This document shows positions 24,093 to 63,388 of a stretch of 64,000 nucleotides of DNA, one piece after another. The stretch is taken from positions 2,703 to 66,702 of the forward strand of contig CANMDT010000004.1 of assembly GCA_947496715.1 (NCBI GenBank), written 5' to 3'. The stretch comes from Myxococcales bacterium (GTDB taxonomy: Bacteria > Myxococcota_A > Bradymonadia > REDH01). The notes below the pieces were generated by a model. It had not been told where the DNA came from and made no database searches. It was given only the letters and a program-made list of their open reading frames with translations. Made by a program: the position numbers and the translations under genes. Numbering within the stretch: position 1 is the stretch's first letter; the number at the start of each line of letters is the position of its first letter.

Positions 24093-24102
24093 CAGTCGGG
24101 CG

Positions 24103-24119: not shown

Positions 24120-24125
24120 GATTGT

Positions 24126-24154: not shown

Positions 24155-24192
24155 CGTCGGTTGATACCCCATCTCTGTCGATTGGAGCATGC

Positions 24193-27273: not shown

Positions 27274-27363
27274 TGTGACTGGCGGCACTGCGCCGCCTAC
27301 TTGCCTCCAGATCAGCGAAGCAATAGCGGGTTGGCATCAGTTCTTCTCTCGACGGAGTTGGCG

Positions 27364-40573: not shown

Positions 40574-41910
40574 TTGCCCGAACCGGAACCCTCGCCGCAG
40601 TCTTCAGGCGGCGCCGGGATCTGCTCGGCATCGTTGCAGGCATCGGCGAGGAAGGTGGCCGAGAGGAAGTCGGTCGCCCGCTGGAAGGCAAAGGTCGAGG
40701 GCGCCAGGCTCAGACTGATGGGCTCGCTCGCCTGGCCGGTCACGTTGCCGCAGGCAAAGTTGCTGTCGCGGAAGCTGGCATCCACAAAGTTGATGTCGGC
40801 GAGGATGTCGCGGCCCGTGAGTGAGTTGGCCTCGCCCACGATGCGCAGCCCGGCAACCGTGAGGTTGAAGCTTCGGTCGTCGCCGATGGTCACGCCGGTC
40901 ACCACGATGGCCGCGCCAACGGGCTCCCGCGCCCCGGTCGGCCGCGGGGTGCGGCTGCCGTCGTCGGCGATGATGTCGTCGGTCGCCAGCGGCTGGAAGG
41001 TGAAGGAGTAGTTGCCCGAGCCGTCGGCCGCGACCTCGGTGGAGATCAGCAGCGGGTGTTCATCGCGACGATCGAGCGGAAACACATTCACGCCGAGCAG
41101 GTAGGTGCCAACCGCCTCGAAGGGGGCGGGCGTGCAGCCCTCGCAAATCTCCGCCGGAGCCGGAATCTCTGCTGCGTCGTTGCAGTTGTCGGCCAGGAAG
41201 GTGGCAGAGAGGAAGTCTGTCGTCCGCTGGAAGGCGAAGGTCGAGGGCGCGAGGCTCAGGCTGATGGGCTCGCTGGCCTGTCCGGTCACATCGCCACAGG
41301 CGAAGTTGCTGTCGCGGAAGGTAGCATTGACGAAGTTGATGTCGGCAAGGATGTCGCGGCCGGTGAGCGAGTTGGCCTCGCCCACGACGCGCAGCCCGGC
41401 AACCGTGAGGTTGAAGCTCCGGTCGTCGCCGATGGTCACGCCAGATACCACGATGGCGGTACCAACGGGCGCGCGGGCGCCGGTCGTCCGCGGCGAGCGG
41501 CTGCCGTCGTCGGCGATGATGTCGTCGGTGGCCAGCGGCTGGAAGGTGAAGGTGTAGGAGCCCGAGCCGTCCGCTTCGATCTCTGTCGAGATAAGAAGCG
41601 GATGTTCGTCGCGACGGTCGAGCGGGAAGACATTCACGCCCAGCAGGTAGGTGCCGACGGGATCGAAGGGAGCCGGCGTGCAGGTCACGCCGCTGCCCGA
41701 GCCCGAGCCCGTATCGGCGCCCGTGTCGATGGTCGTATCGCCGTTGCCGCTGTCCTGCGCCGCGTCGGCTGCCGCCGCAGCACGGGCCTCATCGAACTCC
41801 CCAAGCCGCCCCTCAGGGTCGGGCGTCGTACAGCCGGTGAGCGCGCTCACGACGGAGAGCAGCAGCGCAAAGAGGGAAGGAGTCAAAGCAGTCGCAACGC
41901 GCAGATTCAT
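40570..41910 (-). CDS. lipoprotein containing two ~93%-identical 177-aa domains (recent internal tandem duplication)
   Basis: Lipobox SALTGC (ATG 41910). Two copies of CTPAPF..VGTYLLGVNVFPLDRRDEHPLLISTE…FACG.VTGQASEPISLSLAPSTFAFQR.TDFLSATFLAD.CNDA. Confidence 0.7.
   Translation of the reverse strand: MNLRVATALTPSLFALLLSVVSALTGCTTPDPEGRLGEFDEARAAAAADAAQDSGNGDTTIDTGADTGSGSGSGVTCTPAPFDPVGTYLLGVNVFPLDRRDEHPLLISTEIEADGSGSYTFTFQPLATDDIIADDGSRSPRTTGARAPVGTAIVVSGVTIGDDRSFNLTVAGLRVVGEANSLTGRDILADINFVNATFRDSNFACGDVTGQASEPISLSLAPSTFAFQRTTDFLSATFLADNCNDAAEIPAPAEICEGCTPAPFEAVGTYLLGVNVFPLDRRDEHPLLISTEVAADGSGNYSFTFQPLATDDIIADDGSRTPRPTGAREPVGAAIVVTGVTIGDDRSFNLTVAGLRIVGEANSLTGRDILADINFVDASFRDSNFACGNVTGQASEPISLSLAPSTFAFQRATDFLSATFLADACNDAEQIPAPPEDCGEGSGSGN
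40590..41655 (-). repeat. 531-bp direct tandem duplication (2 copies, ~90% nt identity) inside lipoprotein gene
   Basis: Track ORFs 40574..41011 and 41105..41557 translate to near-identical peptides. Real-frame protein shows two 177-aa copies. Confidence 0.8.
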
Positions 41911-42010
41911 GGCATGCCTCGGCGGCGGGTGTATCGCGCTGCATCGCACAGTTCTTGACGAACTGCAAAACAACGCGGAAGGTTCGACCGCTCTTGGAGA
42001 CTCCCGCAAC

Positions 42011-42027
42011 GGGTCTCTGCGAGACCC
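42011..42027 (+). promoter_or_regulatory. perfect 17-bp palindrome GGGTCTCtgcGAGACCC in the divergent intergenic region, 20 nt upstream of FadL-like start
   Basis: Read directly. Same 7+3+7 geometry as the 24103 hairpin. Confidence 0.4.
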
Positions 42028-42046
42028 TCTGTCGCTACGGAACCAC

Positions 42047-43513
42047 ATGACGAACTCCGTCCTCTCTCGCACCCTGGCCTCTATCTCGCTCCTCGGCCTC
42101 GCCGCAGTGGCGCTCCCGCAAACCGCCAGCGCGAGCGGCTTCGCAGTGGCCCGTTTCGGCGGCGCCCACGGCAACCCCGTCGATAGCCACCCCGCCTCCA
42201 TCTACTACAACCCCGCAGGCCTTCTCGGGCAGGCTGGCCAGCGCTATTACCTCGACGTCACCTGGGCCCAGCGCAACGCCACCTACGAGCGCGACCTCGA
42301 CGGCACGGTTCAAGACAATATCCGTGCCGACGACCCCGCGCTCTTGGCCGCCAACGGCGGCACCGGCACCCTCTCCAACCAGGTCATCTCGCCCATGTTC
42401 GGCGCGAGCGGCAACATCAACCCCAACTTCGCCTGGGGCGCCGGCTTCTTCGTCCCGTTCGGTGGTGCCGCCGCCTGGGACAAGGTCGACGCCAACGCCC
42501 CCAACCCCTACCCCGGCGCCATCGACGGCCCGCAGCGCTGGTTCACCATCGACGGCACCCTCAAGACCATCGGTGTCGCTGTCGGCGGCGCCCAGCGCTT
42601 GCCCGCCGCCCACCTCACGCTCGGCCTCTCCGCCAACCTCTACCAGACCTCCATCGACACCCTCCGCGCCCGCGTCTCGGCCAACACGGACGACGTCTAC
42701 AACGAGGGCCGAAGCCGCATCGACGCCAAGGGCATCGACTGGGGTATCGGCGCAGGCCTCATCTGGGAGCCCCGCCCGAACGACCTCTGGGTCGGCCTCA
42801 GCTACCAGTCACGCCCCAACCTCAACGGCGAGATGGTCCTCAACGGCGAGCTCACCAACGTGTTTGGCGACGAGCCCGAGGTGAACAAGGTCATCCTCAC
42901 ATCGACGCTCCCCGACGTCATCCGGCTCGGATTCAAGAAGCGGATCAACGGTCGCGACGAACTCCGCCTCTTCGGCGACTTCACCCGCTGGAGCACCTTC
43001 GACCAGCAGTGCCTGGTCAACGAAGATGTCCTCGATGGCGCCGACCCCTTCAAGTTCTGCGCCACCAACCCTGACGGCTCGGCTGTCAACCCGGCGAACG
43101 AGCCACGGATCGCCGTCAACCTCTTCCGCCGATGGGAAGATGCATGGGGCGTCCGCTCGGGCTACTCCCACTACCTTGCTGACGGCACCGAGCTCTTCGC
43201 CGACCTCGGCTACGATGCCAACGCCGTCCCCGATACCGCCCTCGAGCCCTCGCTCATGGACATGGACAAGGTCAGCGCCGGCCTAGGCGCCACCTTCGCC
43301 CTCATGCCCACGCTCGACATCTCGGTCTCCGCCAACAACATCTTCTACGCCGACCGCTCCACCAAGGCGTCGGACTTCGACGCTCCCACCGACCCGAGCA
43401 AGAGCCCCAATCCCGCGGGCGACTTCGCCCAGAACGTCTTCTTCATCAACGTGGGCCTGCTCTACCACACGGCCCCGACGGTCGCAGCGGCCGTGACGGC
43501 AGAAGACCTCTAA
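42047..43513 (+). CDS. outer-membrane beta-barrel transporter, FadL/OmpP1/TodX-like
   Basis: Signal peptide …ALPQTASA/SGFAVARFGGAHGNP…SIYYNPAGL typical of the family. C-terminal aromatic-rich beta strands. Confidence 0.7.
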   Translation: MTNSVLSRTLASISLLGLAAVALPQTASASGFAVARFGGAHGNPVDSHPASIYYNPAGLLGQAGQRYYLDVTWAQRNATYERDLDGTVQDNIRADDPALLAANGGTGTLSNQVISPMFGASGNINPNFAWGAGFFVPFGGAAAWDKVDANAPNPYPGAIDGPQRWFTIDGTLKTIGVAVGGAQRLPAAHLTLGLSANLYQTSIDTLRARVSANTDDVYNEGRSRIDAKGIDWGIGAGLIWEPRPNDLWVGLSYQSRPNLNGEMVLNGELTNVFGDEPEVNKVILTSTLPDVIRLGFKKRINGRDELRLFGDFTRWSTFDQQCLVNEDVLDGADPFKFCATNPDGSAVNPANEPRIAVNLFRRWEDAWGVRSGYSHYLADGTELFADLGYDANAVPDTALEPSLMDMDKVSAGLGATFALMPTLDISVSANNIFYADRSTKASDFDAPTDPSKSPNPAGDFAQNVFFINVGLLYHTAPTVAAAVTAEDL

Positions 43514-46816: not shown

Positions 46817-46844
46817 TTGACGCAACTTCCTCGCTTGGTATCAT
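46817..46844 (+). promoter_or_regulatory. sigma70-like promoter with extended -10 (TTGACG-N16-TGgTATCAT) upstream of FHA-DUF4388 gene
   Basis: TTGACG at 46817-22, TATCAT at 46839-44 preceded by TGg, ~48 nt upstream of ATG 46892. Confidence 0.45.
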
Positions 46845-46891
46845 CCGCAAGCCCTTCTGGGGCGACTGCCACCCACGCTTCGGGTCACGCA

Positions 46892-47857
46892 ATGGTCGAT
46901 TGGGTCCTTCGCTTCATCTCCGGCAAATACCAGGGCGGAGAGTTCCCTCTTGTGGAGGGAACCGAGTACTTCGTCGGGCGCAGCAGCGACTGCGCACTGG
47001 TGCTCGTCGAAGACATGATCTCCCGCCAGCACGCCAAATTCGTGGTCGGAGACGGCGGGGTCACGCTTGTCGATCTCGGCAGCACCAACGGCTCCTTTGT
47101 CAACGGTGAGCGGGTCAACTCCCAGCAACTCCGCGAAGGCGATCGCATCCTCTTTGGGACCTCGATCATCCGTCTCATCGCAGCCTCTGCCGCGAACGGA
47201 GTCGCGGTTCAGCAGCCCCGTCAGCAACAGTCCGCAACCCAGTCGACGCTCCTCGGCAGCAAGCCTGAAGAACTCACCTCGCCCCCGCAGCGGCCCGCCG
47301 GCGGAACCGTGAGCGGACTCATGTCCGGACTCCTCGAAGAGGTCTCGCTCTCCGACCTCCTCCAGCTCTTCTCCTCTGCCCGGAAGAGCGGCCTCCTGCG
47401 CATCCAGACCGATGACGACGGCGCCGCCATCTACCTGCGCGACGGTCGCGTCATCCACGCCGAGATCACCAGCCGCCCCGAACTCTCGGGCGAGCGTGCT
47501 GCCTACAGAGCCCTCACCTGGAGCCGCGGCACCTTCGTCCTCGAGCCGCCCGCGCAGCGCACCTTCGCCTCCGAGATGCAGATGAGCACCGAGGCGCTCA
47601 TGATGGAGGCCATGCGCCTCATGGATGAGCGCAACAACCTCGGCAGGGGAGCCCCCGCGCTCACAGACAGCCTCCTCCTCGCAAAGCCGCTCCGTGGCCG
47701 GCTTGCCGACCTCTCCGCAGACCAACTCGACCTGCTGCAGTCGGCACTCGAGGCCGATACCGTTGAGCACCTCATCATGCAGCTCGGCGGCGACGAGATC
47801 GAGACGCTCCAGCACCTCGGTCAGCTTATCACAGCCGGCTTCCTCGCCCGACGATAG
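46892..47857 (+). CDS. FHA-domain protein with C-terminal DUF4388-type domain
   Basis: FHA: …FPLVEGTEYFVGRSSDCALVL…ISRQHAKF…GSTNGSFVNGERV. DUF4388-like: LSDLLQLFSSARKSGLLRIQTDDDGAAIYLRDGRVIHAE. Confidence 0.75.
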   Translation: MVDWVLRFISGKYQGGEFPLVEGTEYFVGRSSDCALVLVEDMISRQHAKFVVGDGGVTLVDLGSTNGSFVNGERVNSQQLREGDRILFGTSIIRLIAASAANGVAVQQPRQQQSATQSTLLGSKPEELTSPPQRPAGGTVSGLMSGLLEEVSLSDLLQLFSSARKSGLLRIQTDDDGAAIYLRDGRVIHAEITSRPELSGERAAYRALTWSRGTFVLEPPAQRTFASEMQMSTEALMMEAMRLMDERNNLGRGAPALTDSLLLAKPLRGRLADLSADQLDLLQSALEADTVEHLIMQLGGDEIETLQHLGQLITAGFLARR

Positions 47858-51079: not shown

Positions 51080-52939
51080 ATGCACCGCTTTTCGGGTCAC
51101 TCCCTCTCCCTGCTCTTCGCGCTCTGCTTCGCGCTCACCGCCTGCAAGCAGGAACCCCAGACTGCGCCTTCCGTGCCGGCCCCGGTTACAACCCCCGAAG
51201 CGCTCACGGCAACGCCGGAGGTCTTTCCGCCCGCACCCTGCGACGAGACCAACGCGCTCCTACGGCGCCCCGCAACCGCCACCGGCGCCTCGGTCGACCT
51301 CACGCAGCTGACCGACCTCCTCAACACCCCGGGCGAGGTACCCGCCGAGGCCGTTGCCAAGCTAAAGGCCGCCGGGCCGGCTGCCGCTCCCCTCGCAGAC
51401 CTCATCGCCTCGCGCATCGTCGCGGCACCCCCAGAAGAGGCGGCCCGACTCCTCGATGCACTGGCCAGCATCTCCCCCGAGGCGGTCGTTACCGTCGCCT
51501 CCAAGCTCATCGACACGGGCGCCGCCGAGCCGTCACGACTCAAACTCTCACTCGCCGCCTCTTCGCTCATCTCCATCGGTGAGCAGGGCTTCATCGCCTT
51601 CCTCGGCCGAGCCAAAGACGAGGCGCTCATCACCCCACCCATCCGCATCTCGCGCATGGAGCGCATGTCGAGCTACCCGCTGCCGGCCTTCGAACTCCTC
51701 TTCGGCAACAAGCGATTCTGCAGCATGAACCCCGACGACGCAGGCTGCCGTGCGCTCCTCCGCGAGCTGTTGATAGCCCGTCCCGCCCTCCTCCCGCCCT
51801 CCGACCAAGACTCCGCCCTGGTTCGGCTCCTGCGCACCGAGGCAGCCCTGCTGCGCGGTGAGCCCGCCGCCGCCGCCTGGAACCAGCTCCTCCTCGACAA
51901 GCAGCTCACGCCCGAAGCCCGCATGAACTCCTTCGAGTTCGTCAACCACTTCCTGCCTGCGGCTGTCGCGATCCCGGCTGCCCTCAACCTCTTTCGCCAA
52001 CCGCCCTCCATCCGCTCAGAGCGCGCCATCGCGCTCTGGCTCATCGCCCGCTCTGGCGCCCTCCGCGACCCCGCGCTCCTCGCGCAGCTCGATGCCCCCC
52101 TCACCGAAACCCCCGACCACCTCGTTGCGCGCGCGCTCGTGAGGCTCTTCGCTGGCGACCCTGCCCTCGCAACCGCCAGCGCAGAACAGCTCCGAGTCTT
52201 CGGTGCCGCCGAGCGCAATGATCTCGCCGCCCTCGCACAGCTCGCGCTCCTCAAACTCGGCAAGTACTCCCTCCTCACCCACACCTCGCTCTCCAAGCAG
52301 GCCGACGCCTGGACTGCGCTCATCGCCGCAAAGGATGCCGCCGCCATGATGGCCCTTCGCGCCGGAGCGCTCAAAAAGACCAACGAGGTCATGAGCGCCG
52401 ATGCCGCCATGCTCTGGGCCGTTGGACGCGAGCAGGAGCTCGCCCGCCACCTCGCTGCGGTCACCGACCCCGGCGCCCGCCCCGACGCCCTCCTCCTCGC
52501 CGATCGGCTCGGCACCGCCGGCGCTGCGGTCGTCGCTTCGCACATCTCCGCCAACCCCGCTCTCGCCGAGGCCGACGCAGTCGCGGCACTCACCGCGACG
52601 CTCACCGCAGACCAGGCAAAACCTTGGATCGATGCTGCGATTGCAAACCCGCGCTACGAGATTGCAGCTCTCAAACTCGCTGCACGCTTCGGCTATCTCC
52701 CCCGCCAGGAGAACCTCATCCCCATCCTCCTGCGCGACCGTGACGGCCGCAAACCCGGCGTCATCCGGCAGGTCGATGCCACCCGCTTTGCCCAAATCCT
52801 CCTCATCCGCCAGCCGCAGCTCAGCCGTGAGCGGCTCGCCGCCTCCAGGCGCCAACTCGCCCCCTCCGATGCCGGATTCGCTGCGATCGGACTCGTCCTC
52901 TTCGCGGCTACCACCGATTGCGCTCCCCCCACCGAGTAG
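51080..52939 (+). CDS. Ala/Leu-rich helical-repeat (HEAT-like) lipoprotein of unknown function
   Basis: Lipobox FALTACK at ATG 51080. Track ORF 49235..52939 is this frame read through hisS antisense without stops. Confidence 0.6.
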   Translation: MHRFSGHSLSLLFALCFALTACKQEPQTAPSVPAPVTTPEALTATPEVFPPAPCDETNALLRRPATATGASVDLTQLTDLLNTPGEVPAEAVAKLKAAGPAAAPLADLIASRIVAAPPEEAARLLDALASISPEAVVTVASKLIDTGAAEPSRLKLSLAASSLISIGEQGFIAFLGRAKDEALITPPIRISRMERMSSYPLPAFELLFGNKRFCSMNPDDAGCRALLRELLIARPALLPPSDQDSALVRLLRTEAALLRGEPAAAAWNQLLLDKQLTPEARMNSFEFVNHFLPAAVAIPAALNLFRQPPSIRSERAIALWLIARSGALRDPALLAQLDAPLTETPDHLVARALVRLFAGDPALATASAEQLRVFGAAERNDLAALAQLALLKLGKYSLLTHTSLSKQADAWTALIAAKDAAAMMALRAGALKKTNEVMSADAAMLWAVGREQELARHLAAVTDPGARPDALLLADRLGTAGAAVVASHISANPALAEADAVAALTATLTADQAKPWIDAAIANPRYEIAALKLAARFGYLPRQENLIPILLRDRDGRKPGVIRQVDATRFAQILLIRQPQLSRERLAASRRQLAPSDAGFAAIGLVLFAATTDCAPPTE

Positions 52940-52947
52940 GCTCCATC

Positions 52948-54324
52948 ATGTCCAACGCGCTCTCCACCCTCCTTCACGCCAGCCGCCCCCAACACCTGCA
53001 GCAGCTGACGGATCTCCTCACCATCCCCAGCATCTCCGCGAAGGCCGAGCACAACGCAGACACCGCCCACTGCGCCGACTTCGTCGCCGATGCGCTCCGC
53101 AATGCCGGACTCCACACCGAGGTCATCCCGACCCCCGGCCACCCCGTCGTCTACGCGGAGTGGCTTGGCGCCCCCGACGCCCCCACCGTCCTCATCTACG
53201 GCCACTACGATGTGCAGCCGGTCGAGCCCCTCGAAGAGTGGCGCAACCCGCCATTCTCGCCCACCATCGAAGGCGACAACATCGTCGCCCGCGGCGCTAC
53301 CGACGACAAGGGCCAGATGTTCGCCCACGTCCTCGCCGCCCACGCGCTTATCACCGCCAATGGCAAGCTCCCCTGCAACGTGAAGTTCATCATCGAGGGC
53401 GAAGAAGAGATCGGCAGCCCCAACCTCGACCCCTTCCTCCGCGACCACCGCGACCGCCTCGCCGCCGATGTCGTCCTGATCAGCGACACCTCCATGTGGT
53501 CCCCCGGCCGCCCCGGCGTCACCGTCGGCCTCCGCGGCCTCACCTACGTCGAAATCCATGTGCAGGGCGCGACCCACGACCTCCACTCCGGCCTCTATGG
53601 AGGCGGCGTCGCAAACCCCATCAACGCCCTCAGCCGCATCATCGCCGGACTCCACAACCCCGATGGCTCGGTCGCCGTCCCCGGCTTCTACGACAACGTC
53701 CAGCCGCTCACCCCCGAGGAGCGCGCCGAGTTCGCTGCGCTCGGCCACGACGAGGTCCAGTTCCGAGCCGAGATCGGCGTCGCTGAGTCGCCCGGAGAGG
53801 CCGGCTACACCCTCCTCGAGCGCATCACCGCCCGCCCCACACTCGACTGCAACGGCATCTGGGGCGGCTACACGGGGGAGGGCGCAAAGACCGTCCTTCC
53901 CGCCTCCGCGCACGCCAAGGTCTCCTGCCGGCTCGTCGCCAACCAGACCTCCGAGGAGATCGAGGCCAAGCTCCGCAACCATGTCCTCGCCAACCTGCCG
54001 CCCGGCGTCACCGCCCGCGTCGAACTCCACCACGGCGCCCCCGCCTTCCTCGCCGATCGCGCCGTCCCCACCATGATCGCCGCCACCAACGCCCTCAAGA
54101 CCGTCTGGGGCGTCGACCCCGTCTTCATGCGCTCGGGAGGCAGCATCCCCGTCGTCGCAAGCTTCAAGTCAGAGCTGGGCCTCGACTCCATCCTCATGGG
54201 CTTCGGCCTCGCCGACGACAGAGCCCACTCCCCCAACGAGAAGTTCTCCATCACCTCGTTCTACCAAGGAATCGAGGCCTCCGCGCAGTTCATGCTCGAA
54301 CTCGCAAAGCTCCCGAAAAAGTAG
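52948..54324 (+). CDS. M20-family metallopeptidase (dipeptidase/ArgE-DapE-like)
   Basis: YGHYDVQP, GATDDKG, EGEEEIGS motifs. Confidence 0.85.
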   Translation: MSNALSTLLHASRPQHLQQLTDLLTIPSISAKAEHNADTAHCADFVADALRNAGLHTEVIPTPGHPVVYAEWLGAPDAPTVLIYGHYDVQPVEPLEEWRNPPFSPTIEGDNIVARGATDDKGQMFAHVLAAHALITANGKLPCNVKFIIEGEEEIGSPNLDPFLRDHRDRLAADVVLISDTSMWSPGRPGVTVGLRGLTYVEIHVQGATHDLHSGLYGGGVANPINALSRIIAGLHNPDGSVAVPGFYDNVQPLTPEERAEFAALGHDEVQFRAEIGVAESPGEAGYTLLERITARPTLDCNGIWGGYTGEGAKTVLPASAHAKVSCRLVANQTSEEIEAKLRNHVLANLPPGVTARVELHHGAPAFLADRAVPTMIAATNALKTVWGVDPVFMRSGGSIPVVASFKSELGLDSILMGFGLADDRAHSPNEKFSITSFYQGIEASAQFMLELAKLPKK

Positions 54325-54352: not shown

Positions 54353-55696
54353 TTAGGGCGTAACCGCGGGCGGCGGCGTGCCGCTCTTCTGGTAAAGCAC
54401 CCAGACGAGGCCAAGCAGCAGAAGCGAAAGCACCGCCAGGCCCGCCACGATGATGTAGAGCACGGTCGGATTCAGCCCACCCGGAGCCGCGAGCGGCGTC
54501 CCCACTCCCTTCACTGCGCCCACCGAGCCAGAGATCGACGGCGGTGTGTTCCGCTTCGCCATCGATGGCATCGAGGTTGAACTCGCCGAACCGGGCGTGC
54601 CGGCTGCAGCAACCGCCGCTCCACCACCGCGGCGCGCCGCGTTCGTGCGTGCCACATCCAGTACCAATGCCAGCTGACGCGGGTCGAGCACCGTGGTCCG
54701 AACCGTCGTCTCCGAACTCAGCTCGCTCTCCAGCGTCTCCAGATCCGACAAGAACTCCATGGCGTTGCCATATCGGTTCTTCGGGTCCTTCTCGAGCGCC
54801 TTGAGGATAATGCGCTCCATCTTCGGATGCACAGGACGCTTCCCCACCTTGCTCGGCGGCTTCGGTGCATCGTAGACATGCGAGGCAAGCACGGCGACCG
54901 CAGCGCTGCTCTTGAATGGAACTTCGCCCGTTACCATCTCGTATAAAATTACGCCCAGGCTGTAGAGGTCGCTCCGACCGTCCAACTCCTTCGCTTGCGC
55001 CTGCTCGGGGCTCAGATACTCCGGCGTGCCATACACAACGCCCGCCTGCGTAAGCTTCTGCTGCTGCTTGCCGTCCGGCTCCTTCACCTTCGCGATGCCG
55101 AAGTCGAGCACCTTAACGTAGTCATCCGCCCCGCGGAACTTCGTCAGCATGATGTTATCGGGCTTCAGGTCGCGGTGCACGATGCCGATCTCGTGCGCCT
55201 CGCTCAGCGTATGCAGCACCTGCCGCATGATCCCAATCACGCGGAGCTCGTCCATCTTCGAGCCAGCCTCCATCACGTCTCGGAGCTGCTGGCCCTCCAC
55301 GAACTCCATCGCAAGGTAGAGCATGCCTTCCGGCGTCCGACCGAAGATGAACACTCGGATGATGTTCGGATGGCTCAATCGCGCGATAGCCTGCGCCTCG
55401 CGGTTGAACCGCTTCACCAACTCCTCGTTCCGAGCAGCGTGACCGTGCAGAACCTTCACCGCAATCCGCTGCCCGATCGCAGGATTCTCCGCCAGATAGA
55501 CGGCGCCCATGCCGCCTTCGCCCAACTTCTTCTTGATGATGTAATCACCAAAAAGCGTCGTACCGACCAAGTCGTCCTGGTCTACCTGCGTTGCCGGCGA
55601 ATCCCGCTCAGGCATCGGCACCAGACCCGAACCGTCGTCGGGGCAAAAGAGTGCCTCTTCATTGAATCTACGACCGCAGTGCGGACAGACTTTCAT
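54353..55696 (-). CDS. Hanks-type Ser/Thr protein kinase with N-terminal zinc ribbon and C-terminal TM anchor
   Basis: CPHCG…[64 protein letters not shown]. Start at ATG 55696 (TTG 55714 alternative). Confidence 0.85.
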   Translation of the reverse strand: MKVCPHCGRRFNEEALFCPDDGSGLVPMPERDSPATQVDQDDLVGTTLFGDYIIKKKLGEGGMGAVYLAENPAIGQRIAVKVLHGHAARNEELVKRFNREAQAIARLSHPNIIRVFIFGRTPEGMLYLAMEFVEGQQLRDVMEAGSKMDELRVIGIMRQVLHTLSEAHEIGIVHRDLKPDNIMLTKFRGADDYVKVLDFGIAKVKEPDGKQQQKLTQAGVVYGTPEYLSPEQAQAKELDGRSDLYSLGVILYEMVTGEVPFKSSAAVAVLASHVYDAPKPPSKVGKRPVHPKMERIILKALEKDPKNRYGNAMEFLSDLETLESELSSETTVRTTVLDPRQLALVLDVARTNAARRGGGAAVAAAGTPGSASSTSMPSMAKRNTPPSISGSVGAVKGVGTPLAAPGGLNPTVLYIIVAGLAVLSLLLLGLVWVLYQKSGTPPPAVTP

Positions 55697-55847
55697 GGCT
55701 GCGCCATCGCTCAAGGGTGTTCGAGTCCTCTACCACGCGCAACCTCCCAGTTTCAAGAACCGTCGGACGATACTTGTCGCACACCGCGCTTCGACGCTAT
55801 CCTCACCAAATAGTCGTCTTTCGCTCTCCTCGCCCGTCGGCTCGGCC

Positions 55848-56798
55848 ATGACCCCTTCCCACGACCATGCCCTCGCAGAGGCCCTCCGGCTCCTGCTCGA
55901 AAGAGCCGACGACTACGAAGGCCGCACGCGAGGAACCGAACTGCAACGTCCGCAGCTCCTACTCGCGGAACTTCACATCACCGCTCCCACCGATTCCGGA
56001 CGCACCGCGCTTGAGCCGCACCCCGACCTTGCGCCGGAACCCCTGCGTTGCATCGGCTGCGGTACCGAGAATCCGCCTGGCGCCAGGTTCTGCGGAGACT
56101 GCGGTCTGTCACAGCAGGCTCCCCCTGCAACCCCGGCACCGCCCGCCGCGCCCCTCTCCCGCTTCCAGCTCCTGCAGCTCCGAGACGACGGCTCCGACGG
56201 CTCCGCAACCCAACTCCCGCTCGCCGAACTCTTCATCGGACGAGAAGGAGACCTCGCCTTTCCGGCAGACCCGCTCCTGTCGCCGAAGCACGCCAAGCTC
56301 ACCGTCACCGATGACGCCGTCCGCATCGAAGACCTCCACTCGCTCAACGGCACCTTCCTCAAACTCCGCAACGAACACCGACTTCAGCTCGGCGACACGC
56401 TCATCCTCGGCCGCCAGCTCCTCCGCTTCGAACGGGTCGAGCAGGTCGCCGACCCACGCGCCCGCGGCGCCGACGGCACCCGTTTCATGGGCTCGCCCAG
56501 CCCGAGCGCCTCCTTCCGACTCGTCCAAGTCGGCGTAGGCGGCGTAGCGCAGAACGCCTACCTCCTCTACGACACCGCCACCTCCATCGGGCGAGAGCGG
56601 GGCGACCTCGTCTTCCCCCGCGACCGCTTCATGTCTGGCAAACATGCCGAGGTCGTCGCGCGAAGCGACGGCCACTACTACCTCGTCGACAAGGGCAGCT
56701 CCAACGGCACCTGGCTCAAGCTCTGGGAGCCCGTCGACCTCTCCCACGGCGACCGCATCCTCGTTGGTCAACAGACCTTCCGGGTCGAGGCCTCGTGA
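55848..56798 (+). CDS. zinc-ribbon + dual FHA-domain protein
   Basis: CIGCGTENPPGARFCGDCG. Two FHA units (…GREGDLAF..P.LSPKHAKL…SLNGTF… and …GRERGDLVFPRDRFMSGKHAEV…GSSNGTW…). Divergent from the kinase gene. Confidence 0.75.
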   Translation: MTPSHDHALAEALRLLLERADDYEGRTRGTELQRPQLLLAELHITAPTDSGRTALEPHPDLAPEPLRCIGCGTENPPGARFCGDCGLSQQAPPATPAPPAAPLSRFQLLQLRDDGSDGSATQLPLAELFIGREGDLAFPADPLLSPKHAKLTVTDDAVRIEDLHSLNGTFLKLRNEHRLQLGDTLILGRQLLRFERVEQVADPRARGADGTRFMGSPSPSASFRLVQVGVGGVAQNAYLLYDTATSIGRERGDLVFPRDRFMSGKHAEVVARSDGHYYLVDKGSSNGTWLKLWEPVDLSHGDRILVGQQTFRVEAS

Positions 56799-57601
56799 GC
56801 CGCTCACTGCCCCTCGGCCTGGCACTCTGCCTCGCCCTGGTTGGCTGCGACGACCTCACCTTCGGCTCATCGGTCGGAGGCGTTCAGGAGTCCGCTCCCG
56901 CCACCGCCGGGTCGGTCAAAGCCGTCGGCCTCATCCTCCAACGAACCGCGCCTGGCGGCGGCCATCTGGTCGAGGCGCAGCTGCAGCTCGTCAACCCCGG
57001 CGCCGTTGACCGCACGGTCCCCATTGGCGACCTCCGACTGCTCATCGGCGACCAGCCCCTCACCCTCTTCGCCGTCGCCAACAACTTCTACCAGTCTGCC
57101 AGTACCGATAACTTCGGAACCCTCGCGGCCGGCACCTCCATCACCCTCTCGCTCGTCGCGGCGCTCCCCTCCGGCGCGACCACCCTCACCGCCGAACTCC
57201 AGCTCCCCGCTGCCCCCACCCTCAGGCTCCCCGCAACGGCCGAGCCACCCGGAACCGGCCAGAGCACCGCCATCGAACTCCTCGGCGCCGACCGCGGAGC
57301 CCTCGCCATTGTAAGCCCCTACAACGGCTGGGGAAACGCCGTAACCTACGACCTCCTCGCCGATGCCGGCGCAGGCGCAGCCACGAGCGCACGCATCGAC
57401 CGCTGGCTCCTTGCCGCTTCGGCCTTCACCGGCCCCGACGAGTATCTGCCGGCTGCCGCCTTTCCCGCCTCCGGTGACTACTGGGTCGAAGTCGTCGCGC
57501 TCAGCCCCGTCTACGGCACAACGGTGACAGCCGCAGGTTGGGCCTCAGGCTCCTGGTTTGCGGCCGGAAACGCGACGGGCGCGCCCCTCCAGGCCCCCTA
57601 G
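56795..57601 (+). CDS. lipoprotein of unknown function (GTG start overlapping upstream stop, GTGA)
   Basis: Lipobox LALVGCD. Ala/Gly-rich. Confidence 0.55.
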   Translation: MSRSLPLGLALCLALVGCDDLTFGSSVGGVQESAPATAGSVKAVGLILQRTAPGGGHLVEAQLQLVNPGAVDRTVPIGDLRLLIGDQPLTLFAVANNFYQSASTDNFGTLAAGTSITLSLVAALPSGATTLTAELQLPAAPTLRLPATAEPPGTGQSTAIELLGADRGALAIVSPYNGWGNAVTYDLLADAGAGAATSARIDRWLLAASAFTGPDEYLPAAAFPASGDYWVEVVALSPVYGTTVTAAGWASGSWFAAGNATGAPLQAP

Positions 57602-59613
57602 CGGCCTTCGAGATTCAGGCCGCCAGCATAGGCATACGAGACGTCGCAGTCATACCCGTATGCATACAGCCCGAAGGCCTGCCCGCCCGTCACCGTGTGC
57701 ACGCCGTCAGGCACGCCCTGCTTGTAGACGTCCCACTGGCGACCACCCGCCGTCAGACGGCTCGTCGGACTTACCGCAAGAGGGTTCCCATCGATGACGA
57801 TGACCGTCCCCGTCGGTGCAACCAGGCTCAAGAAGTCCTGCGTGTAGTTCGCCGGTATCAGCAAAATGTAGTTGTCGCGGAACTGCCGCGTCGGCACCGC
57901 CATCAACATCGCAGGGTCGCCCACACCGGTCCCGCTGCAGGTCGCGGGAATCGCGCAGTTCTGCTCTGGTGTATCCGGAATGAAGGGAGGAAAGCCCTCC
58001 TCCCCCCGCACGCAGGTCGCGTTCGCTGGGCTCGGGTAACTCGAACCGACCATCATCTGGGTCAGGCTGATCGGCCCCGTTGCACTGAGCGCAAAATCGA
58101 GCGTTGTCGCGAACTCGATCACCTCACCTCCGCCAAGCGTCCGGCCGCTCACACCCGCGATCACCGGATCGGTCTGAATCGTCGTGCCCGGCGTCGAAGC
58201 AATGATCCGCCACACGTCGCTCTCCGTCCCACGCGGCTTGAACTTGATACCCAGATAGTCCGTGTCCCAGCTCGCCACGGGAATCATCTGCTCCTCCACA
58301 TGGTCGCAGTAGGTCACATTCGCAGGCACATTCGCGCACTCGTTACCCGAGAAGACCGCCACCGAACGGGTCGAAGTCACCCGCGTCCCCGTCGGGTCCC
58401 CCGTCGCGCCATCCGCCCGCATCGCCAGCACCTCGCCTTGAGCAAGCTCAAACGTAGCGCTGCCTCCCGCACCAATCCCGGCCACCGAACCACCTGCCTG
58501 AAGGCCCGACCGCGGGGGCGCCGTGATCGTCACCGAGGTGGTCCCATCCGCGACCGCCACCACCGCAAAGTAACTCGCGCCCGCCGGACCCGCCGGCCAT
58601 CCCGCCACCAGGTATTCGTTGCCGAGCGCTGTCGCAGGAAGCAGCAACGATGCATCGTTGGAGAACACGCCGGAGTTGTTCAACGGATTGAACTGGTGCG
58701 CAATGATCGGCCCGGTGCTCTGCACCCGGTAGCTGTTCATCGACCGGCTCGTCCCGATCACATCCCGCTGCGGAAGTTCGACGGACTGCAGTGATCCGGC
58801 GGCGATGCTCACCGTCTGTGAGAACCCCTCCGGCGTCGTCACCGTTGCAGTCACCCCCCGGGTGCCCGCATTCGACAGCGTGATCGCATACTGCTGCGCA
58901 TCTGCCCCCGACGGGTCCGACGCATCCGAGTAGTTGTCCAGGTCGAGCGCGTAGAAGTCGCAACCAACATAGGTCTTCGCGTCCCCGGCACATGGGTCAA
59001 CACAGACGCCCGCCGAACAGCCGAACTCACAGGCCTCCTGCACCTCGGTCGCCGTCCCCTCAGCGTTGCACTGCACCACCGAGTCGCCCTGGCATCCCCG
59101 AACACCGGCGATGCAGACATCCGTCGTACAGGCTCCCGCCAAACAGTTCGGTGTCTCTACGGGGCAGGCCGACCGCTCGATGCCGGTACCACTGCTCGGG
59201 CAGATGCCGAGCGAGCGCGGGTCGAGGCAGCCCACCGTCGTCCCGGGGATGCAGATGCTCGACGCATCCACGCAGGAGCCGGCGGCGCAGGCTTGACCGG
59301 TCGCGCAGGGCTGTGCCGCCTCGCTCCCGTCGATCTGACAAATGAGGAGCCCAGTTCCGTCTGCGCTGCAACGAATCTCGCCAGCACTACAGGGCCCCAC
59401 GGGAACATCGCTGCCCGTGTCCAACGCACCTGAACCCTCGTTTCCGTCGACGCTCCCGGAATCCACAGTGCCGATATCCGGCCTGCCCGTGTCGCGGGTC
59501 GACCCGCCGCCACCGCTCGCCCTGCCTACGCTCTCTGCTGTGCAGCCTGCGAGGGCTACACCGGTCATCAGCAACAGCAGCGAAGCGTTCCATCCTCGAG
59601 GCATCGTCAGCAT
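57598..59613 (-). CDS. secreted lipoprotein with N-terminal disulfide-rich (EGF-like) modules and large C-terminal beta-rich domain ending …YAYAGGLNL
   Basis: Lipobox VALAGC. Many C..G.C…C modules. C-terminal region resembles IgGFc-binding-protein N-terminal-type beta domain. Confidence 0.65.
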   Translation of the reverse strand: MLTMPRGWNASLLLLMTGVALAGCTAESVGRASGGGGSTRDTGRPDIGTVDSGSVDGNEGSGALDTGSDVPVGPCSAGEIRCSADGTGLLICQIDGSEAAQPCATGQACAAGSCVDASSICIPGTTVGCLDPRSLGICPSSGTGIERSACPVETPNCLAGACTTDVCIAGVRGCQGDSVVQCNAEGTATEVQEACEFGCSAGVCVDPCAGDAKTYVGCDFYALDLDNYSDASDPSGADAQQYAITLSNAGTRGVTATVTTPEGFSQTVSIAAGSLQSVELPQRDVIGTSRSMNSYRVQSTGPIIAHQFNPLNNSGVFSNDASLLLPATALGNEYLVAGWPAGPAGASYFAVVAVADGTTSVTITAPPRSGLQAGGSVAGIGAGGSATFELAQGEVLAMRADGATGDPTGTRVTSTRSVAVFSGNECANVPANVTYCDHVEEQMIPVASWDTDYLGIKFKPRGTESDVWRIIASTPGTTIQTDPVIAGVSGRTLGGGEVIEFATTLDFALSATGPISLTQMMVGSSYPSPANATCVRGEEGFPPFIPDTPEQNCAIPATCSGTGVGDPAMLMAVPTRQFRDNYILLIPANYTQDFLSLVAPTGTVIVIDGNPLAVSPTSRLTAGGRQWDVYKQGVPDGVHTVTGGQAFGLYAYGYDCDVSYAYAGGLNLEGR

Positions 59614-59805: not shown

Positions 59806-60114
59806 ATGACGAAGAGCGAACTTATCGAGCTATTTGCCGAACGCGCCCGAATCCCCAAAAAGCGGGCCGAGGAGGTCGTGCAGTGCATCCTCTCCGCCAT
59901 GGGCGATACGCTCGCGCAGGGGAACCGGATCGAGATCCGAGGCTTCGGCTCCTTCTCCCTCAACCAGCATCGTGCCTACGTCGGCCGCAACCCCAAGACC
60001 GGTAACGAAGTCCCCGTCGAGGCAAAGCAGGCCGTCCACTTCAAGGTGGGACGCGAGCTCCGCGACCTCGCCAACCAGTCTGGCGTGAAGAACCCCAAGT
60101 CGGGCGACCGCTAG
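59806..60114 (+). CDS. ihfB: integration host factor beta subunit (HU/IHF family)
   Basis: MTKSELIE…RIEIRGFGSFSL…GRNPKTG…HFK.G.ELRD closely matches enterobacterial IhfB layout. Confidence 0.85.
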   Translation: MTKSELIELFAERARIPKKRAEEVVQCILSAMGDTLAQGNRIEIRGFGSFSLNQHRAYVGRNPKTGNEVPVEAKQAVHFKVGRELRDLANQSGVKNPKSGDR

Positions 60115-60119: not shown

Positions 60120-62450
60120 TCAGGGGCCCGGACGATGGCGCCACAGCGTCACGCCGCACCCTGTCGCAGCCCCAACCGTATCTGACGAGGTATCGCCCGA
60201 CACCGTAGGGCAGGGCGTTGCCAAGTAGGCGCTCGTCCCCGGCCGTGTCGCATCCAGCGTCCCGAGCCGGATGCTTCCATCGCCCTCCGCGAACCAGAGC
60301 GCCACGCCCCGGCTACCCGAGCGCCAACCCATCAGGCCGCCGCGACCGAACAGCCCGTTCGCCGTGTCGCTCCGAACCCCCGCAGCAGCACCCGCGATCG
60401 TGGCCCCAACCTGCACGCCTGCAACCGTGTCGCCGCTCCACAGCCCCGCTCCCGCGTCCATCACCGATAGCAGCGCCGCACCGTTCCAGCGCAGCCCCAC
60501 TGCACCCGCGCTCGCGCTCGGCCCGGCCACGCGACCGCCGAACTGCCACCCCGCGGAAAGCTGGTACCAGGCCACCTCCACGCCACTACTCAGCGCCACC
60601 CGATCTCCCGCCAGAGCCAGCGCCCCGAAGCGGCCCGCCAGCCGAACCGGAGAACCCACCAACGAGACCATGCCGCCTACCACAACATAGGCCTGCGCCA
60701 CCGCCTCGCTCTCCGTCACAAACACCAGCCAGCCCAAGCCCGCTTCGAACGATACAACCCCAGATAGACCCGTCTCAAACGCCGTTACCTCCCCATCGGA
60801 GACCCAGCCTCGAAGGCTCCCCTGCGACGAAACAGAAAACACCGCACCTTCCTCACCGCGTGCCACAAAGTCAGCGTTCGCACCATCGCGCAGCACCGCC
60901 GTCACGCCGCCCTCCGCCCGCTCCCTAACCGTCCACGCGCCAGCGGTACCGGCAGCCAACAACCAGCCTCCGTCGACGCTCACGAGGTGGCGCGGCGTCA
61001 AATCCACGCGGCTCCCTGGCGCGACCGAAACCTGCGCCCCGGTCGCCGTCGCCACCGAAACCTCCGAAGACGTCGCCATCAGCCACTGCGAAGCGCCCGG
61101 CCCGAACGCACGCGCTCCAGCCACGCCCGTGGGCGCCGCGAGCAACTCTACGCCACCTATGCCACCCGCTGAGAGACGAGAAATCGCCCCGGTCGCATGC
61201 AACACGCGGAAGCCACCGCCACCGGTACCGATCGAAACGCCATCTGAAGATCCGAGTGCGAAGTCAGTCGCGACCGGTCCCGCGCCGGCATCCGACACCA
61301 GCCGAACGCTGCCTCCGCCCGAACCGCTGGCCCGCATCAGCATGGCCACTACCAGCCGGCCCGACTGCATCATCGACGCCTGTGCAATGGCCTCCGTTAC
61401 ACCGTCGCCCAAGACGCTACCGCTGCCGAGCGCCAGAGCAGTGCCAGTCGCCGACAACACCAGCGCGCGGCACCCGCCGTCGCGGCCGCTCGCGTAGCCG
61501 CTCGCGCCGTCATCGCTCACAGCCAGACCCAGCACATCGCCACCCGTAAACGGATTCACCGAGCCGAGGAACCGATAGGTCCCCGACACCTCCTCAAACG
61601 CCTGCACCGTCCCGGGGTCCGCGCTCGACACCAGCACCCGACCCAAACTCGATGCAATGTCCGTCGGAGGCCGGCTCAGCCGCACGGGCGCCGCGCCCTC
61701 GTCGAACACAAAGGGCGCCCCGATTGGATGCCGGTAGATCAGCCCCGTTCCATCGGCCAAGCTCTCCATGCCGAGCAGCAGCGTCGCTCCCACCACCTCC
61801 GCAGAAACCGTCCGCGCTTCGGCCCGCCCGAAGGCGCCTACCGGTATCGGGCTTGCGCCGGTCTCGTATAGCTGCGCCCCTGTGTCGCCCCACGCCACAA
61901 CATGCGTCGCGTCCACCTGCGTGAACCCAGACACCGACAGCCTGCTCAACCAGTGCAGCGGAGCGCCCACCGAGAACTCGCAGCCATCCTCATACAGCCC
62001 GTTCAGGTCGCGGTAGCCAGCTTCTATGCACCGCTGAACGCTGCAGCGAAAGTCCGCTCCGCACAGCCCCTCCGCCATCGGAGCACCGCTGCAGGCCTCG
62101 CCGCAGCTTCCGCAGTTCGACGCATCCCAAACCACGGTCGGATCCGCACCATCCACAAGCCCGTCGCAGTCGTTGTCCGCGCCGTCGCACACCTCCGGCC
62201 GCGGAACACAGGTTGAGTCCACCTCGGTGTCCGCCTCCGTGTCCTGGCGAGCGTCAAACAGCTGCTCCGTGTCTGCGATCGCTCCGGTATCCAACTCCGT
62301 GTCTGCCTCAACAGCACTGTCCGTTTCGGCGTCACCCGCCGCATCGGAGTCAGCCTCCAAAAACGCCTGGCTGTCAAAATCCAGCGTCGCCGCACAGCCC
62401 GCTGCCTGCAACGCAGCGAGCGCCAACAGCCACTTCGCGCCTCGTCCCAT
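60120..62450 (-). CDS. Gly/Ala/Ser-rich lipoprotein with one MopE-type motif (CDGADNDCDGLVDGAD…NCGSCGEAC)
   Basis: Lipobox LQAAGC after ATG 62450. Start overlaps upstream stop by 1 nt (TGATG). Confidence 0.65.
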   Translation of the reverse strand: MGRGAKWLLALAALQAAGCAATLDFDSQAFLEADSDAAGDAETDSAVEADTELDTGAIADTEQLFDARQDTEADTEVDSTCVPRPEVCDGADNDCDGLVDGADPTVVWDASNCGSCGEACSGAPMAEGLCGADFRCSVQRCIEAGYRDLNGLYEDGCEFSVGAPLHWLSRLSVSGFTQVDATHVVAWGDTGAQLYETGASPIPVGAFGRAEARTVSAEVVGATLLLGMESLADGTGLIYRHPIGAPFVFDEGAAPVRLSRPPTDIASSLGRVLVSSADPGTVQAFEEVSGTYRFLGSVNPFTGGDVLGLAVSDDGASGYASGRDGGCRALVLSATGTALALGSGSVLGDGVTEAIAQASMMQSGRLVVAMLMRASGSGGGSVRLVSDAGAGPVATDFALGSSDGVSIGTGGGGFRVLHATGAISRLSAGGIGGVELLAAPTGVAGARAFGPGASQWLMATSSEVSVATATGAQVSVAPGSRVDLTPRHLVSVDGGWLLAAGTAGAWTVRERAEGGVTAVLRDGANADFVARGEEGAVFSVSSQGSLRGWVSDGEVTAFETGLSGVVSFEAGLGWLVFVTESEAVAQAYVVVGGMVSLVGSPVRLAGRFGALALAGDRVALSSGVEVAWYQLSAGWQFGGRVAGPSASAGAVGLRWNGAALLSVMDAGAGLWSGDTVAGVQVGATIAGAAAGVRSDTANGLFGRGGLMGWRSGSRGVALWFAEGDGSIRLGTLDATRPGTSAYLATPCPTVSGDTSSDTVGAATGCGVTLWRHRPGP

Positions 62451-63388
62451 CACGGCCTCCATGTTGCAGACAGACCGGCCGCCGTCGGCGCAAGCAGCGG
62501 AATAATCGCCACCGCAGGGCTCTCGCCTCCGGCCTCGCGCTCCCACCACCAGAGCAGCCCGGTCGCCACCGCGCCAAGCGCAGCCACGCCATACGACGCA
62601 TTCGACAGCGTCGCCGCGCTGCGGCCATCCGCCTGCTCACGGTCGAACCCCACACGATCCACGCCAGCCTCGGCCAGCCTGTCGGCCTCGTCGAAGTGCC
62701 CGGCCGAAACGAAGTAGTATCCTACCCCGACCGCTGCTGCCGCCGCCGTCACACCGGAGCCAATCCACCAGCCTGGAAGACCTCCCTCAGCCGCCACAGG
62801 CGCAAGGACAATCGAGACAACGAGGCTCTCTCCGGCCGCCACCGTCACAGTCTCCCGCCACGGAACATACCCTGGCGCCTCCGCCTCCAGCAGGTGGACG
62901 CCAGGACCCACAGATACGCTCCCGGGCAGCGCGAGCGCGTGACCGCCATCCACCCGAACCCGCGCCCCTTCCGTGGAGGCTCCGAGCCTCATCTCAAGCT
63001 CCGCCTGTCGCGCAGGCGCCGCCGAATCCTTCCGCGGCGCTGCTGCCGCCGGCTCCGCAAACGCCGCCAACCTGAGCAGCGCCACTTCTGCATCAGCTCG
63101 CAGCGACGCCTCTGCCGATCCTGCGGCCAAACGATACCAAGTCACCGCCTCTCGACCCATCTCCGCCCGCTCGTAGGCCAGCGCCGTGTTGTAGGCCAGC
63201 CGATCCTCTGGCTCCAGCGCGTAGGCCTGCGACAGGTAGGCCGCCGCCGACGCATACCGCCCCGCCTCAAACGCCTCCACGCCTCGCCCGAACAGCAGCT
63301 CGGCCTCTGTCGGAGCCTTCGGAGCTGCGCCAACACCCGCAGGCGCCGCAGCGAGCAAGACGGCCAATGCAAAACTACTCGCTCTCAT
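62450..63388 (-). CDS. TPR-repeat + PEGA-domain protein with C-terminal TM segment
   Basis: Signal peptide MRASSFALAVLLAAAPAGVGA. TPR-like AYNTALAYERAEMGREAVTWYRLAA. PEGA-like GARVRVDGGHALALPGSVSVGPGVHLLEAEAPGYVPW. Confidence 0.6.
   Translation of the reverse strand: MRASSFALAVLLAAAPAGVGAAPKAPTEAELLFGRGVEAFEAGRYASAAAYLSQAYALEPEDRLAYNTALAYERAEMGREAVTWYRLAAGSAEASLRADAEVALLRLAAFAEPAAAAPRKDSAAPARQAELEMRLGASTEGARVRVDGGHALALPGSVSVGPGVHLLEAEAPGYVPWRETVTVAAGESLVVSIVLAPVAAEGGLPGWWIGSGVTAAAAAVGVGYYFVSAGHFDEADRLAEAGVDRVGFDREQADGRSAATLSNASYGVAALGAVATGLLWWWEREAGGESPAVAIIPLLAPTAAGLSATWRP

Follow-up and report, generated by a model that had tools for sequence, protein, structure and literature searches.

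Kinase/FHA pairs are the best-understood Ser/Thr signalling route in bacteria, and to our knowledge almost all mechanistic work on them comes from Actinobacteria and Pseudomonas. The PpkA-Fha1-TagQRST genes of Pseudomonas aeruginosa lie together and encode a membrane kinase along with an FHA protein and an outer-membrane lipoprotein. FraH of Anabaena carries an N-terminal zinc ribbon, a Pro-rich linker and a single FHA domain; we know of no demonstrated adjacent kinase for it. Myxococcota have very large kinomes, and their wiring is mostly not worked out. In Mycobacterium tuberculosis, linker residues T152 and T210 of Rv1747 are phosphorylated by PknF, the kinase encoded next door, which alters the relation of the two FHA domains (PMC8339232). 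Here we describe a locus in a 64,000-nucleotide stretch of DNA from a Myxococcales bacterium (contig CANMDT010000004.1 of assembly GCA_947496715.1; the window), in which a Hanks-type Ser/Thr kinase gene and a gene for a zinc-ribbon protein with two FHA domains (fha) lie back to back, with two lipoprotein genes alongside:

54353..59613, strands -, +, +, -: four closely packed genes (kinase, FHA, lipoprotein, IgGFc_binding)
54353..55696, minus strand: Hanks-type (PknB-like) Ser/Thr kinase gene, 447 residues, ATG start at 55696 (MKVCPHCG)
55697..55847: divergent kinase/fha intergenic region, 151 bp
55848..56798, plus strand: zinc-ribbon dual-FHA protein gene, 316 residues

We read this locus as a chromosomal Hanks-type kinase/FHA-adaptor signalling pair, with a probability of about 0.55. 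Such a pair is an ordinary kind of bacterial signalling, of which this member is uncharacterised; our literature search turned up no work on this family or on kinases of Bradymonadia. The adjacency of kinase and fha survives inversion and a change of context within a Bradymonadia sub-lineage. The divergent arrangement and its spacing had been described in an earlier sequence-only reading of this DNA, and the gene coordinates given there are right. The open reading frames of the three genes are 54353..55714 (-), 55662..56798 (+) and 56795..57601 (+), and the same products, of 447, 316 and 268 residues, were called on some 20 independent metagenome contigs that carry identical proteins.

The DNA is chromosomal and comes from a predatory-type member of the Bradymonadia (Myxococcota); the genome records nearest to the region are metagenome-assembled genomes (MAGs) of that class, and the G+C content of the window is about 67%. 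The genes around the locus are housekeeping genes (HisRS, M20 peptidase, IHF-beta-like, CoaX, BirA and Aat), and the locus belongs to the core chromosome and not to an island.

The kinase has the following parts, all on the minus strand:

55631..55687: N-terminal zinc-knuckle-like CPHCG-x9-FCPDDG, residues 4-22, with three Cys and an Asp, from the translation
54758..55543: predicted catalytic kinase domain, residues 52-313, with G-loop, IAVK, HRD, DFG and SPE present
55040..55057: activation-loop KLTQAG, invariant in 22 orthologs
54683..54700: post-kinase Thr cluster RTTVLD, residues 333-338, a candidate autophosphorylation and FHA-docking site
54392..54463: predicted C-terminal transmembrane (TM) helix, residues 412-435, then a 12-residue tail, from the hydropathy of the window sequence and its homologs

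The Pfam Pkinase model matches residues 52-313 at 175.2 bits against a cut-off of 31.7 (E 2.3e-51), and the closest solved structure is M. tuberculosis PknB (E 3e-58). The catalytic motifs GEGGMG (59-64), IAVK (78-81), HRDLKPDN (174-181), DFG (198-200) and SPE (229-231) are all in place, and the enzyme is apparently active and intact. It is not a PknB/Stk1 PASTA equivalog: model NF033483 scores 330 bits, below its cut-off of 450, with the match confined to the kinase part, and the protein has no PASTA repeats. After the kinase domain comes a segment that reads [KR]T[TAS][VIM][LI]D in 22 of 22 aligned orthologs; on the strength of this alignment, its longer form T(K/R)TT(V/I)LD is newly described here. 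A low-complexity Ala/Pro/Ser linker, the hydrophobic helix and the tail follow in that order. Because the single hydrophobic helix is C-terminal and only 12 residues come after it, the kinase is predicted to be tail-anchored at the inner membrane with essentially no extracellular domain, the catalytic domain lying in the cytoplasm and about 12 residues outside.

The kinase thus begins with CPHCG...CPDDG and ends with a TM helix, as the sequence-only reading had it. The N terminus, MKVCPHCGRRFNEEALFCPDDG, is zinc-ribbon-like, and kinase orthologs begin MK[VI]CPxCG. However, the zinc ribbon assigned to the kinase by that reading did not hold up, as the fourth ligand position is Asp and the motif is Cys3-Asp instead of Cys4. 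A CxxC-x10-Cxx(D/E)G knuckle is present in 94 of the 120 closest kinase homologs, and among these Asp holds the fourth position in 75 and Glu or His in 19, while Cys never occurs there; Pfam zf-C2HC_2 reaches 19, with a cut-off of 27. In 1.18 million residues of six-frame open reading frames from related loci, the motif was confined to the N termini of these kinases. It is missing from the FHA-paired kinases of loci L030, L038 and L040, and also from that of L021.

The FHA protein is divided as follows, all on the plus strand:

55869..55901: N-terminal acidic-helix motif ALAEALRLLLE, residues 8-18, family form xxLxxALL[ED]AL
56049..56105: predicted Cys4 zinc ribbon CIGCGTENPPGARFCGDCG (CIGCG...CGDCG), residues 68-86
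56199..56435: FHA domain 1 (FHA1), residues 118-196, Pfam Yop-YscD_cpl/FHA
56472..56498: inter-FHA linker motif DGTRFMGSP, residues 209-217, with Thr211 as candidate phospho-acceptor
56580..56768: FHA domain 2 (FHA2), residues 245-307, Pfam FHA

Pfam FHA (PF00498) matches two stretches of the protein (86.5 bits, cut-off 20.7), and each domain has the five canonical phosphothreonine-pocket residues. Those of FHA1 (G131, R132, S145, H148 and N167) are kept in 89-91 of 91 sequences, and those of FHA2 (G248, R249, S263, H266 and N286) are invariant in all 91. Judged by these residues, both domains should be competent to bind phosphothreonine. The ribbon cysteines C68, C71, C82 and C85 are kept in 89-90 of the 91 sequences, with Pfam scores just below the cut-offs (PF13240, 22.1 versus 25; PF12773, 23.1 versus 27.3). 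The earlier description of a protein with two complete FHA domains is thus borne out, and the zinc ribbon named there is a putative one with well-conserved cysteines. It had also called both partners soluble, which fits the FHA protein, predicted to be cytoplasmic, but not the membrane-anchored kinase. By sequence, the closest solved relative of FHA2 is of the GarA/OdhI type (the GarA FHA domain, E 4.5e-8). The best NCBIfam model of the FHA protein is FhaB/FipA, and every equivalog model scores below its cut-off.

The two FHA domains are joined by a linker of 26 residues, in which DGTRFMGSP is conserved on a par with the phosphothreonine pocket. Thr211 and Pro217 are present in 91 of 91 sequences and Gly210 in 89, and the position at +3 from Thr211 is hydrophobic (M/Y/L/I/F) in 90. 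The invariant linker motif, DGTR(Y/F)MGSP in these aligned sequences, is likewise newly described. Variants of the N-terminal acidic-helix motif occur throughout the Bradymonadia FHA homologs, in kinase-linked and unlinked proteins alike.

A mechanism can be proposed by analogy with PknB/FhaA-FhaB and PknF/Rv1747. The kinase would autophosphorylate on the activation-loop Thr (KLTQAG) and on the post-kinase RTTVLD cluster, and one FHA domain would dock on these kinase phosphothreonines. The kinase would then phosphorylate the adaptor, for which Thr211, with its hydrophobic residue at +3, is the best candidate site. The other FHA domain would bind phosphorylated Thr211, probably in trans because the linker is short, and so switch or oligomerise the adaptor.

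The evidence that carries the pairing is synteny. An FHA profile made from a 13-sequence alignment found 317 relatives in the genome collection. The synteny set consisted of 80 genome loci with FHA homologs, in which six local proteins were placed by tblastn and the neighbouring genes were called and clustered; a neighbour-joining tree was built from the FHA proteins. In 14 of the 80 loci, fha lies directly beside a kinase ortholog that shares 55-98% identity with the window kinase. The two genes are divergent in eight of these (L013-L017, L019, L021 and L078) and in tandem, fha before kinase with gaps of 74-268 bp, in the remaining six (L018, L020, L022, L030, L038 and L040); L098 and L100 add two more divergent cases. 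There are 20 kinase matches in the flanks of the 80 loci, 14 of which are these direct neighbours. At L030, L038 and L040, the pair is kept although the flanks are unrelated to those of the window. Within the Bradymonadia part of the FHA tree, lineages with a linked kinase are interspersed and lie in basal positions, suggesting an ancestral linkage with several later losses. From these comparisons, the pairing looks selected and is confined to part of the Bradymonadia. The sequence-only reading had made conservation of the pairing its check, and this is found within the sub-lineage but not in the other 66 loci.

The M20 peptidase gene (52918..54324, plus strand) adjoins the kinase gene in most window-like loci, usually in convergent orientation (L013-L018, L021, L022 and L078; one gene lies between in L020). 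This adjacency is kept about as well as that of kinase and fha, which is a caution for synteny arguments.

Several observations weigh against a dedicated pair. Sixty-six of the 80 FHA loci have no kinase within 6 kb; the FHA protein nonetheless retains every invariant residue at these loci, and so does not need an adjacent kinase. Many of these loci have the order rpmB(-) fha(+) IHF/HU(+), and others have different conserved neighbours; in Polyangia, tandem FHA paralogs lie near an RpoD-like gene. The best kinase homolog of Lujinxingia vulgaris, TMQ3 and MAG OY969087 (L093-L095) is unlinked to fha and lies beside ABC-transporter genes. Kinase-fha adjacency falls largely inside a syntenic block (HisRS, a 619-residue protein, M20 peptidase and IHF-like), and part of it may be inherited gene order. 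Partner specificity is uncertain, because Myxococcota kinases are many and the window itself encodes one further kinase and one further FHA protein. The scan of window genes found no PP2C phosphatase. Thr211 could be a structural residue instead of a phosphosite, and at L101/L102 the lipoprotein and IgGFc_binding genes occur as a pair with no adjoining FHA or kinase gene. The pairing itself rests on synteny, and from it we infer the phospho-partnership. Much of this would also fit the main alternative, inherited gene order throughout, in which the FHA adaptor belongs to the core proteins of Myxococcota and works with several kinases or with no particular one, and the neighbouring kinase acts on other substrates: the FHA family is widespread, its invariant residues do not depend on a nearby kinase, the kinase keeps other company in Lujinxingia and its like, the M20 peptidase is as constant a neighbour within the window-like block, and other kinases and FHA proteins are at hand. 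However, gene order that is merely inherited would not readily explain why the pair survives inversion from divergent to tandem, why it is kept with short gaps after full replacement of the flanks, or why most flanking kinase matches are direct neighbours of fha. We therefore consider this explanation possible, though on balance doubtful.

The company that fha keeps elsewhere points to another explanation, that the protein is mainly linked to a nucleoid/translation neighbourhood (rpmB - fha - IHF-beta-like), for example by regulating an IHF/HU-type protein in a phospho-dependent manner, with the kinase and lipoprotein genes as later insertions. An IHF/HU-family gene lies within 600 bp downstream of fha on the same strand in 26 of the 80 loci and within 6 kb in 33, rpmB is divergently upstream in Lujinxingia-type loci, and L078 has the order kinase - fha - IHF directly. 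In the window, the IHF-beta-like gene (59806..60114, plus strand; NCBIfam 110 bits versus a cut-off of 115) follows fha once the lipoprotein/IgGFc_binding pair is skipped; that pair lies between the two genes in the window lineage as if inserted. Yet this is adjacency alone, with no overlap or operon sign, there is no IHF gene near fha in the kinase-linked loci L020, L022, L030 and L038, and the kinase could still be the writer, so that we hold this explanation to be improbable. Far less likely is that the kinase serves anti-phage defence, as a PD-T4-6 or MADS type kinase with accessory neighbours. The PADLOC PD-T4-6 and mad6 profiles do match the kinase domain, with E down to 9e-95, and NCBIfam MAD6 gives 178 bits, but such profiles match any Hanks kinase domain, and the scores fall short of the cut-offs (MAD6, 178 versus 460; BREX PglW, 98 versus 990). 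No PADLOC profile matches the FHA protein, the lipoprotein or the IgGFc_binding protein. These generic matches and the position in a conserved core-chromosome neighbourhood (HisRS, M20 peptidase, IHF-like, CoaX and BirA), with orthologs across the class and no variable island, make a defence role unlikely. A threonine phosphorylation pathway in the style of type VI secretion (T6SS), comprising a PpkA kinase, Fha/TagH and a TagQ-like lipoprotein, would need the same ingredients as those found here, a membrane kinase, an FHA protein and a lipoprotein, and there is a weak TIGR03354 (TagH) match to FHA2. That match (38.5 bits) is far under the cut-off of 120, however, the kinase has no periplasmic domain, and no T6SS gene was found among the scanned window genes or the inspected representatives of recurring neighbour clusters; of the explanations weighed here we give this one the slightest chance.

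The kinase/FHA gene pair is followed by two genes for exported proteins:

56795..57601, plus strand: lipoprotein gene, 268 residues, with signal peptide and lipobox (56795..56848) and then two predicted beta-sandwich (FN3/Ig-like) domains
56795..56798, plus strand: GTGA, in which the TGA stop of fha overlaps the GTG start of the lipoprotein gene
57598..59613, minus strand: IgGFc_binding-domain lipoprotein gene, 671 residues (Pfam PF17517, E 1.6e-64; LAGC lipobox)

The overlap of fha and the lipoprotein gene, already noted in the sequence-only reading, is read directly from the DNA. The lipoprotein assignment is also sound: the lipobox LVGC ends the segment MSRSLPLGLALCLALVG-C18, and in a motif-level test Cys18 was invariant in 14 of 14 homologs. 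The protein has no Pfam or NCBIfam match. A word-indexed search returned 8 close homologs, and an exhaustive profile search of 1.84 billion representatives returned only 9 matches to the family, which by these searches is tiny and lineage-restricted. An AlphaFold2 prediction with 9 close homologs reached a mean per-residue confidence (pLDDT) of 33; when 5 distant homologs were added, this rose to 82, with a template-modelling score (pTM) of 0.79, and the model has two beta-sandwich domains. The profile of the window clade alone missed the L017-L019 proteins, whose homology was established via the intermediates P0172-P0177. A PDB search found no relative of the IgGFc_binding protein by sequence. 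The gene for this protein converges on the lipoprotein gene, and the stop codons overlap as CTAG (57598..57601), as they do in L014-L016. This overlap leaves no room for a terminator between the two genes.

Three arrangements of the lipoprotein gene were found. In type I, it follows fha with a 4-nt overlap and the IgGFc_binding gene is convergent; this is the order in the window, in L014-L016, in the partial L013, and in the distant members L096/L097, whose lipoproteins are about 36% identical, and L098, where the identity is about 28% and a divergent kinase gene is also present. The overlap is kept in L014-L016, L096 and L098. L021 has the type I gene order, but the overlap is not established there, as the start of its lipoprotein gene is not fixed. 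In type II, the lipoprotein gene abuts an upstream IgGFc_binding gene (from a 4-nt overlap to an 8-nt gap; L017, L018, L019, L101 and L102). All four genes are co-directional in L018, in the order IgGFc_binding, lipoprotein, fha and kinase, and L101 and L102 run IHF, IgGFc_binding, lipoprotein and then HisRS with no FHA or kinase gene between. In type III, found at L100, the lipoprotein gene follows the kinase gene after a 70-bp gap and there is no IgGFc_binding gene. Of the 16 lipoprotein loci, 15 have an IgGFc_binding gene next to the lipoprotein gene, and 14 have FHA adjoining or the pair one gene away, the others being L101 and L102. Conversely, kinase-fha pairs occur without the lipoprotein in L020, L022, L030, L038, L040 and L078. 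Thus, since types I-III cover its loci, the lipoprotein gene is always second, behind an fha, kinase or IgGFc_binding gene; it is nearly always found in this neighbourhood, and no one pairing is obligatory. A link of the lipoprotein to the IgGFc_binding gene only had been considered and was dropped after L100, which has no IgGFc_binding gene, and L098/L096, which have the window-type overlap.

These arrangements bear on the compact unit of kinase, FHA reader and envelope effector put forward in the sequence-only reading. Its kinase-fha core is retained in part of the lineage and the fha-lipoprotein overlap recurs down to about 28-36% identity, but the lipoprotein is not specific to FHA, as it also stands behind IgGFc_binding (L017-L019, L101/L102) and behind the kinase (L100). 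The lipoprotein cannot be a direct target of the FHA protein, because it is exported and the FHA reader is cytoplasmic; direct recognition of the lipoproteins is unlikely, and a part as envelope effector would be indirect at best. In this lineage the lipoprotein and IgGFc_binding genes accompany the pair, most likely through co-expression, and for exported lipoproteins the data reach no further than co-expression or an indirect link at the envelope.

A more ambitious and, in our judgment, improbable extension makes the four genes one trans-envelope device of predatory Bradymonadia, with surface sensing, kinase, adaptor oligomers and a docking pair. In such a device, a surface complex of the IgGFc_binding protein and the tandem-FN3 lipoprotein would report cell-surface or prey contact to the kinase, with the signal passing through the TM helix and the short periplasmic tail. 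The kinase phosphothreonines would assemble adaptor oligomers through linker Thr211, and the Cys3-Asp/Glu knuckle and the N-terminal segment of the adaptor would form a dedicated docking pair. Knuckle and N-terminal segment are both present at 10 loci, both absent at 3 and mixed at 2.

One further feature lies upstream of fha:

55774..55803, plus strand: promoter-like TTGTCG-N18-TATCCT, sole exact match in the window

This candidate promoter had been proposed earlier; the motif is present, but 6 nt from the position then given (55768..55797). It has 8 of 12 consensus positions, and a sigma-70 scan at a threshold of 9/12 found no promoter. The motif sits in a block of about 50 nt that is invariant in five close relatives, and the 5'-leader downstream of it varies with indels. 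This pattern lends mild support to a regulatory element at 55774..55803, from relatives that are close.

Some other genes of the window and of related loci should be recorded. The second Hanks kinase of the window lacks the N-terminal knuckle, and the second FHA protein is an FHA + DUF4388/PatA_N protein (46817..47857 and 1562..3139, both on the plus strand, for the second FHA protein and this kinase). In L020 and L022, apparent orthologs of the latter FHA protein, judged by similar N- and C-terminal sequences, are encoded 1-2 genes upstream of the paired fha and kinase genes. The kinase homolog of L093-L095 keeps the CPxC...CPDDG knuckle and heads two ABC-transporter ATPase/permease gene pairs. 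In Polyangia and related Myxococcota MAGs (L080, L082-L090 and L092), the zinc-ribbon dual-FHA gene is present as two tandem paralogs, followed at several of these loci by genes for a small lipoprotein-like protein and an RpoD-like sigma factor. Farther from the pair, a lipoprotein gene at 40570..42201 (minus strand), upstream of a FadL/TodX-type outer-membrane gene (41651..43513), contains 300-nt direct repeats (40604..40903 and 41150..41449) that are 87% identical and 546 nt apart; through this internal duplication a domain of about 180 residues is encoded twice. Four consecutive very large secreted/lipoprotein genes (about 1000-1450 residues each) occupy 17341..31635 on the plus strand, and the domains of their products include beta-propeller, cadherin-like, bacterial Ig and thrombospondin type-3 repeats, a typical Myxococcota surface repertoire. 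After the IHF-like gene, 60120..62549 (minus strand) encodes an 809-residue protein with a MopE-like CDGxDNDCDG motif, homologs of which (clusters c25/c26) are found at the same position in related loci.

The locus is a compact candidate case of kinase/FHA signalling that is conserved within one lineage. Mutagenesis or phosphoproteomics could be aimed at three sharply defined sites in it, namely the RTTVLD cluster and the activation-loop Thr of the kinase and linker Thr211 of the adaptor. The family-wide Cys3-Asp/Glu knuckle is a candidate metal-binding element that is likewise available for study. Together with the tail anchor, the zinc-ribbon tandem-FHA adaptor with its linker Thr and the tandem-FN3 lipoprotein, it is specific to this family, and these features make a tidy experimental system and no surprise. 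If the pairing is true, a stand-alone tandem-FHA adaptor is added to the Rv1747 paradigm; if it is false, the locus is one more annotated kinase beside one more FHA protein.

Among described systems, FraH differs from the window protein in having one FHA domain and in belonging to another phylum. PpkA-Fha1-TagQRST differs in its T6SS context, of which there was no sign among the genes scanned here, and in the periplasmic sensor domain of its kinase, which the window kinase lacks, and the TagH score is below the cut-off, as given above. GarA and OdhI supply the closest solved FHA domains by sequence and the concept of an FHA domain that binds a phosphothreonine in the same protein, but each has only one FHA domain, their N-terminal ETTS phospho-motif is missing from the window protein, and the OdhI/GarA model NF041660 gives 43.9 bits against a cut-off of 200. 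With PknB and FhaA/FhaB (FipA), the locus shares a membrane kinase, closest to the PknB structures, and a small FHA adaptor. It differs from that system in gene order, in the absence of PASTA domains from the kinase, with its extracellular part of about 12 residues, and in having no PP2C (window genes scanned), RodA or PbpA genes at the locus; FhaB/FipA (NF049868) scores 75.4 bits, below 125, and the window protein carries a predicted zinc ribbon besides its two FHA domains. The closest precedent, by analogy, comes from PknF/Rv1747. In Rv1747 the FHA module is fused to an ABC transporter, whereas the window protein stands alone, with a zinc ribbon and no ABC transporter domain, and its linker is much shorter, with one invariant and putatively phosphorylated Thr. 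In both, nevertheless, a Hanks kinase gene lies beside the gene for a protein with two FHA domains and a Thr-bearing linker.

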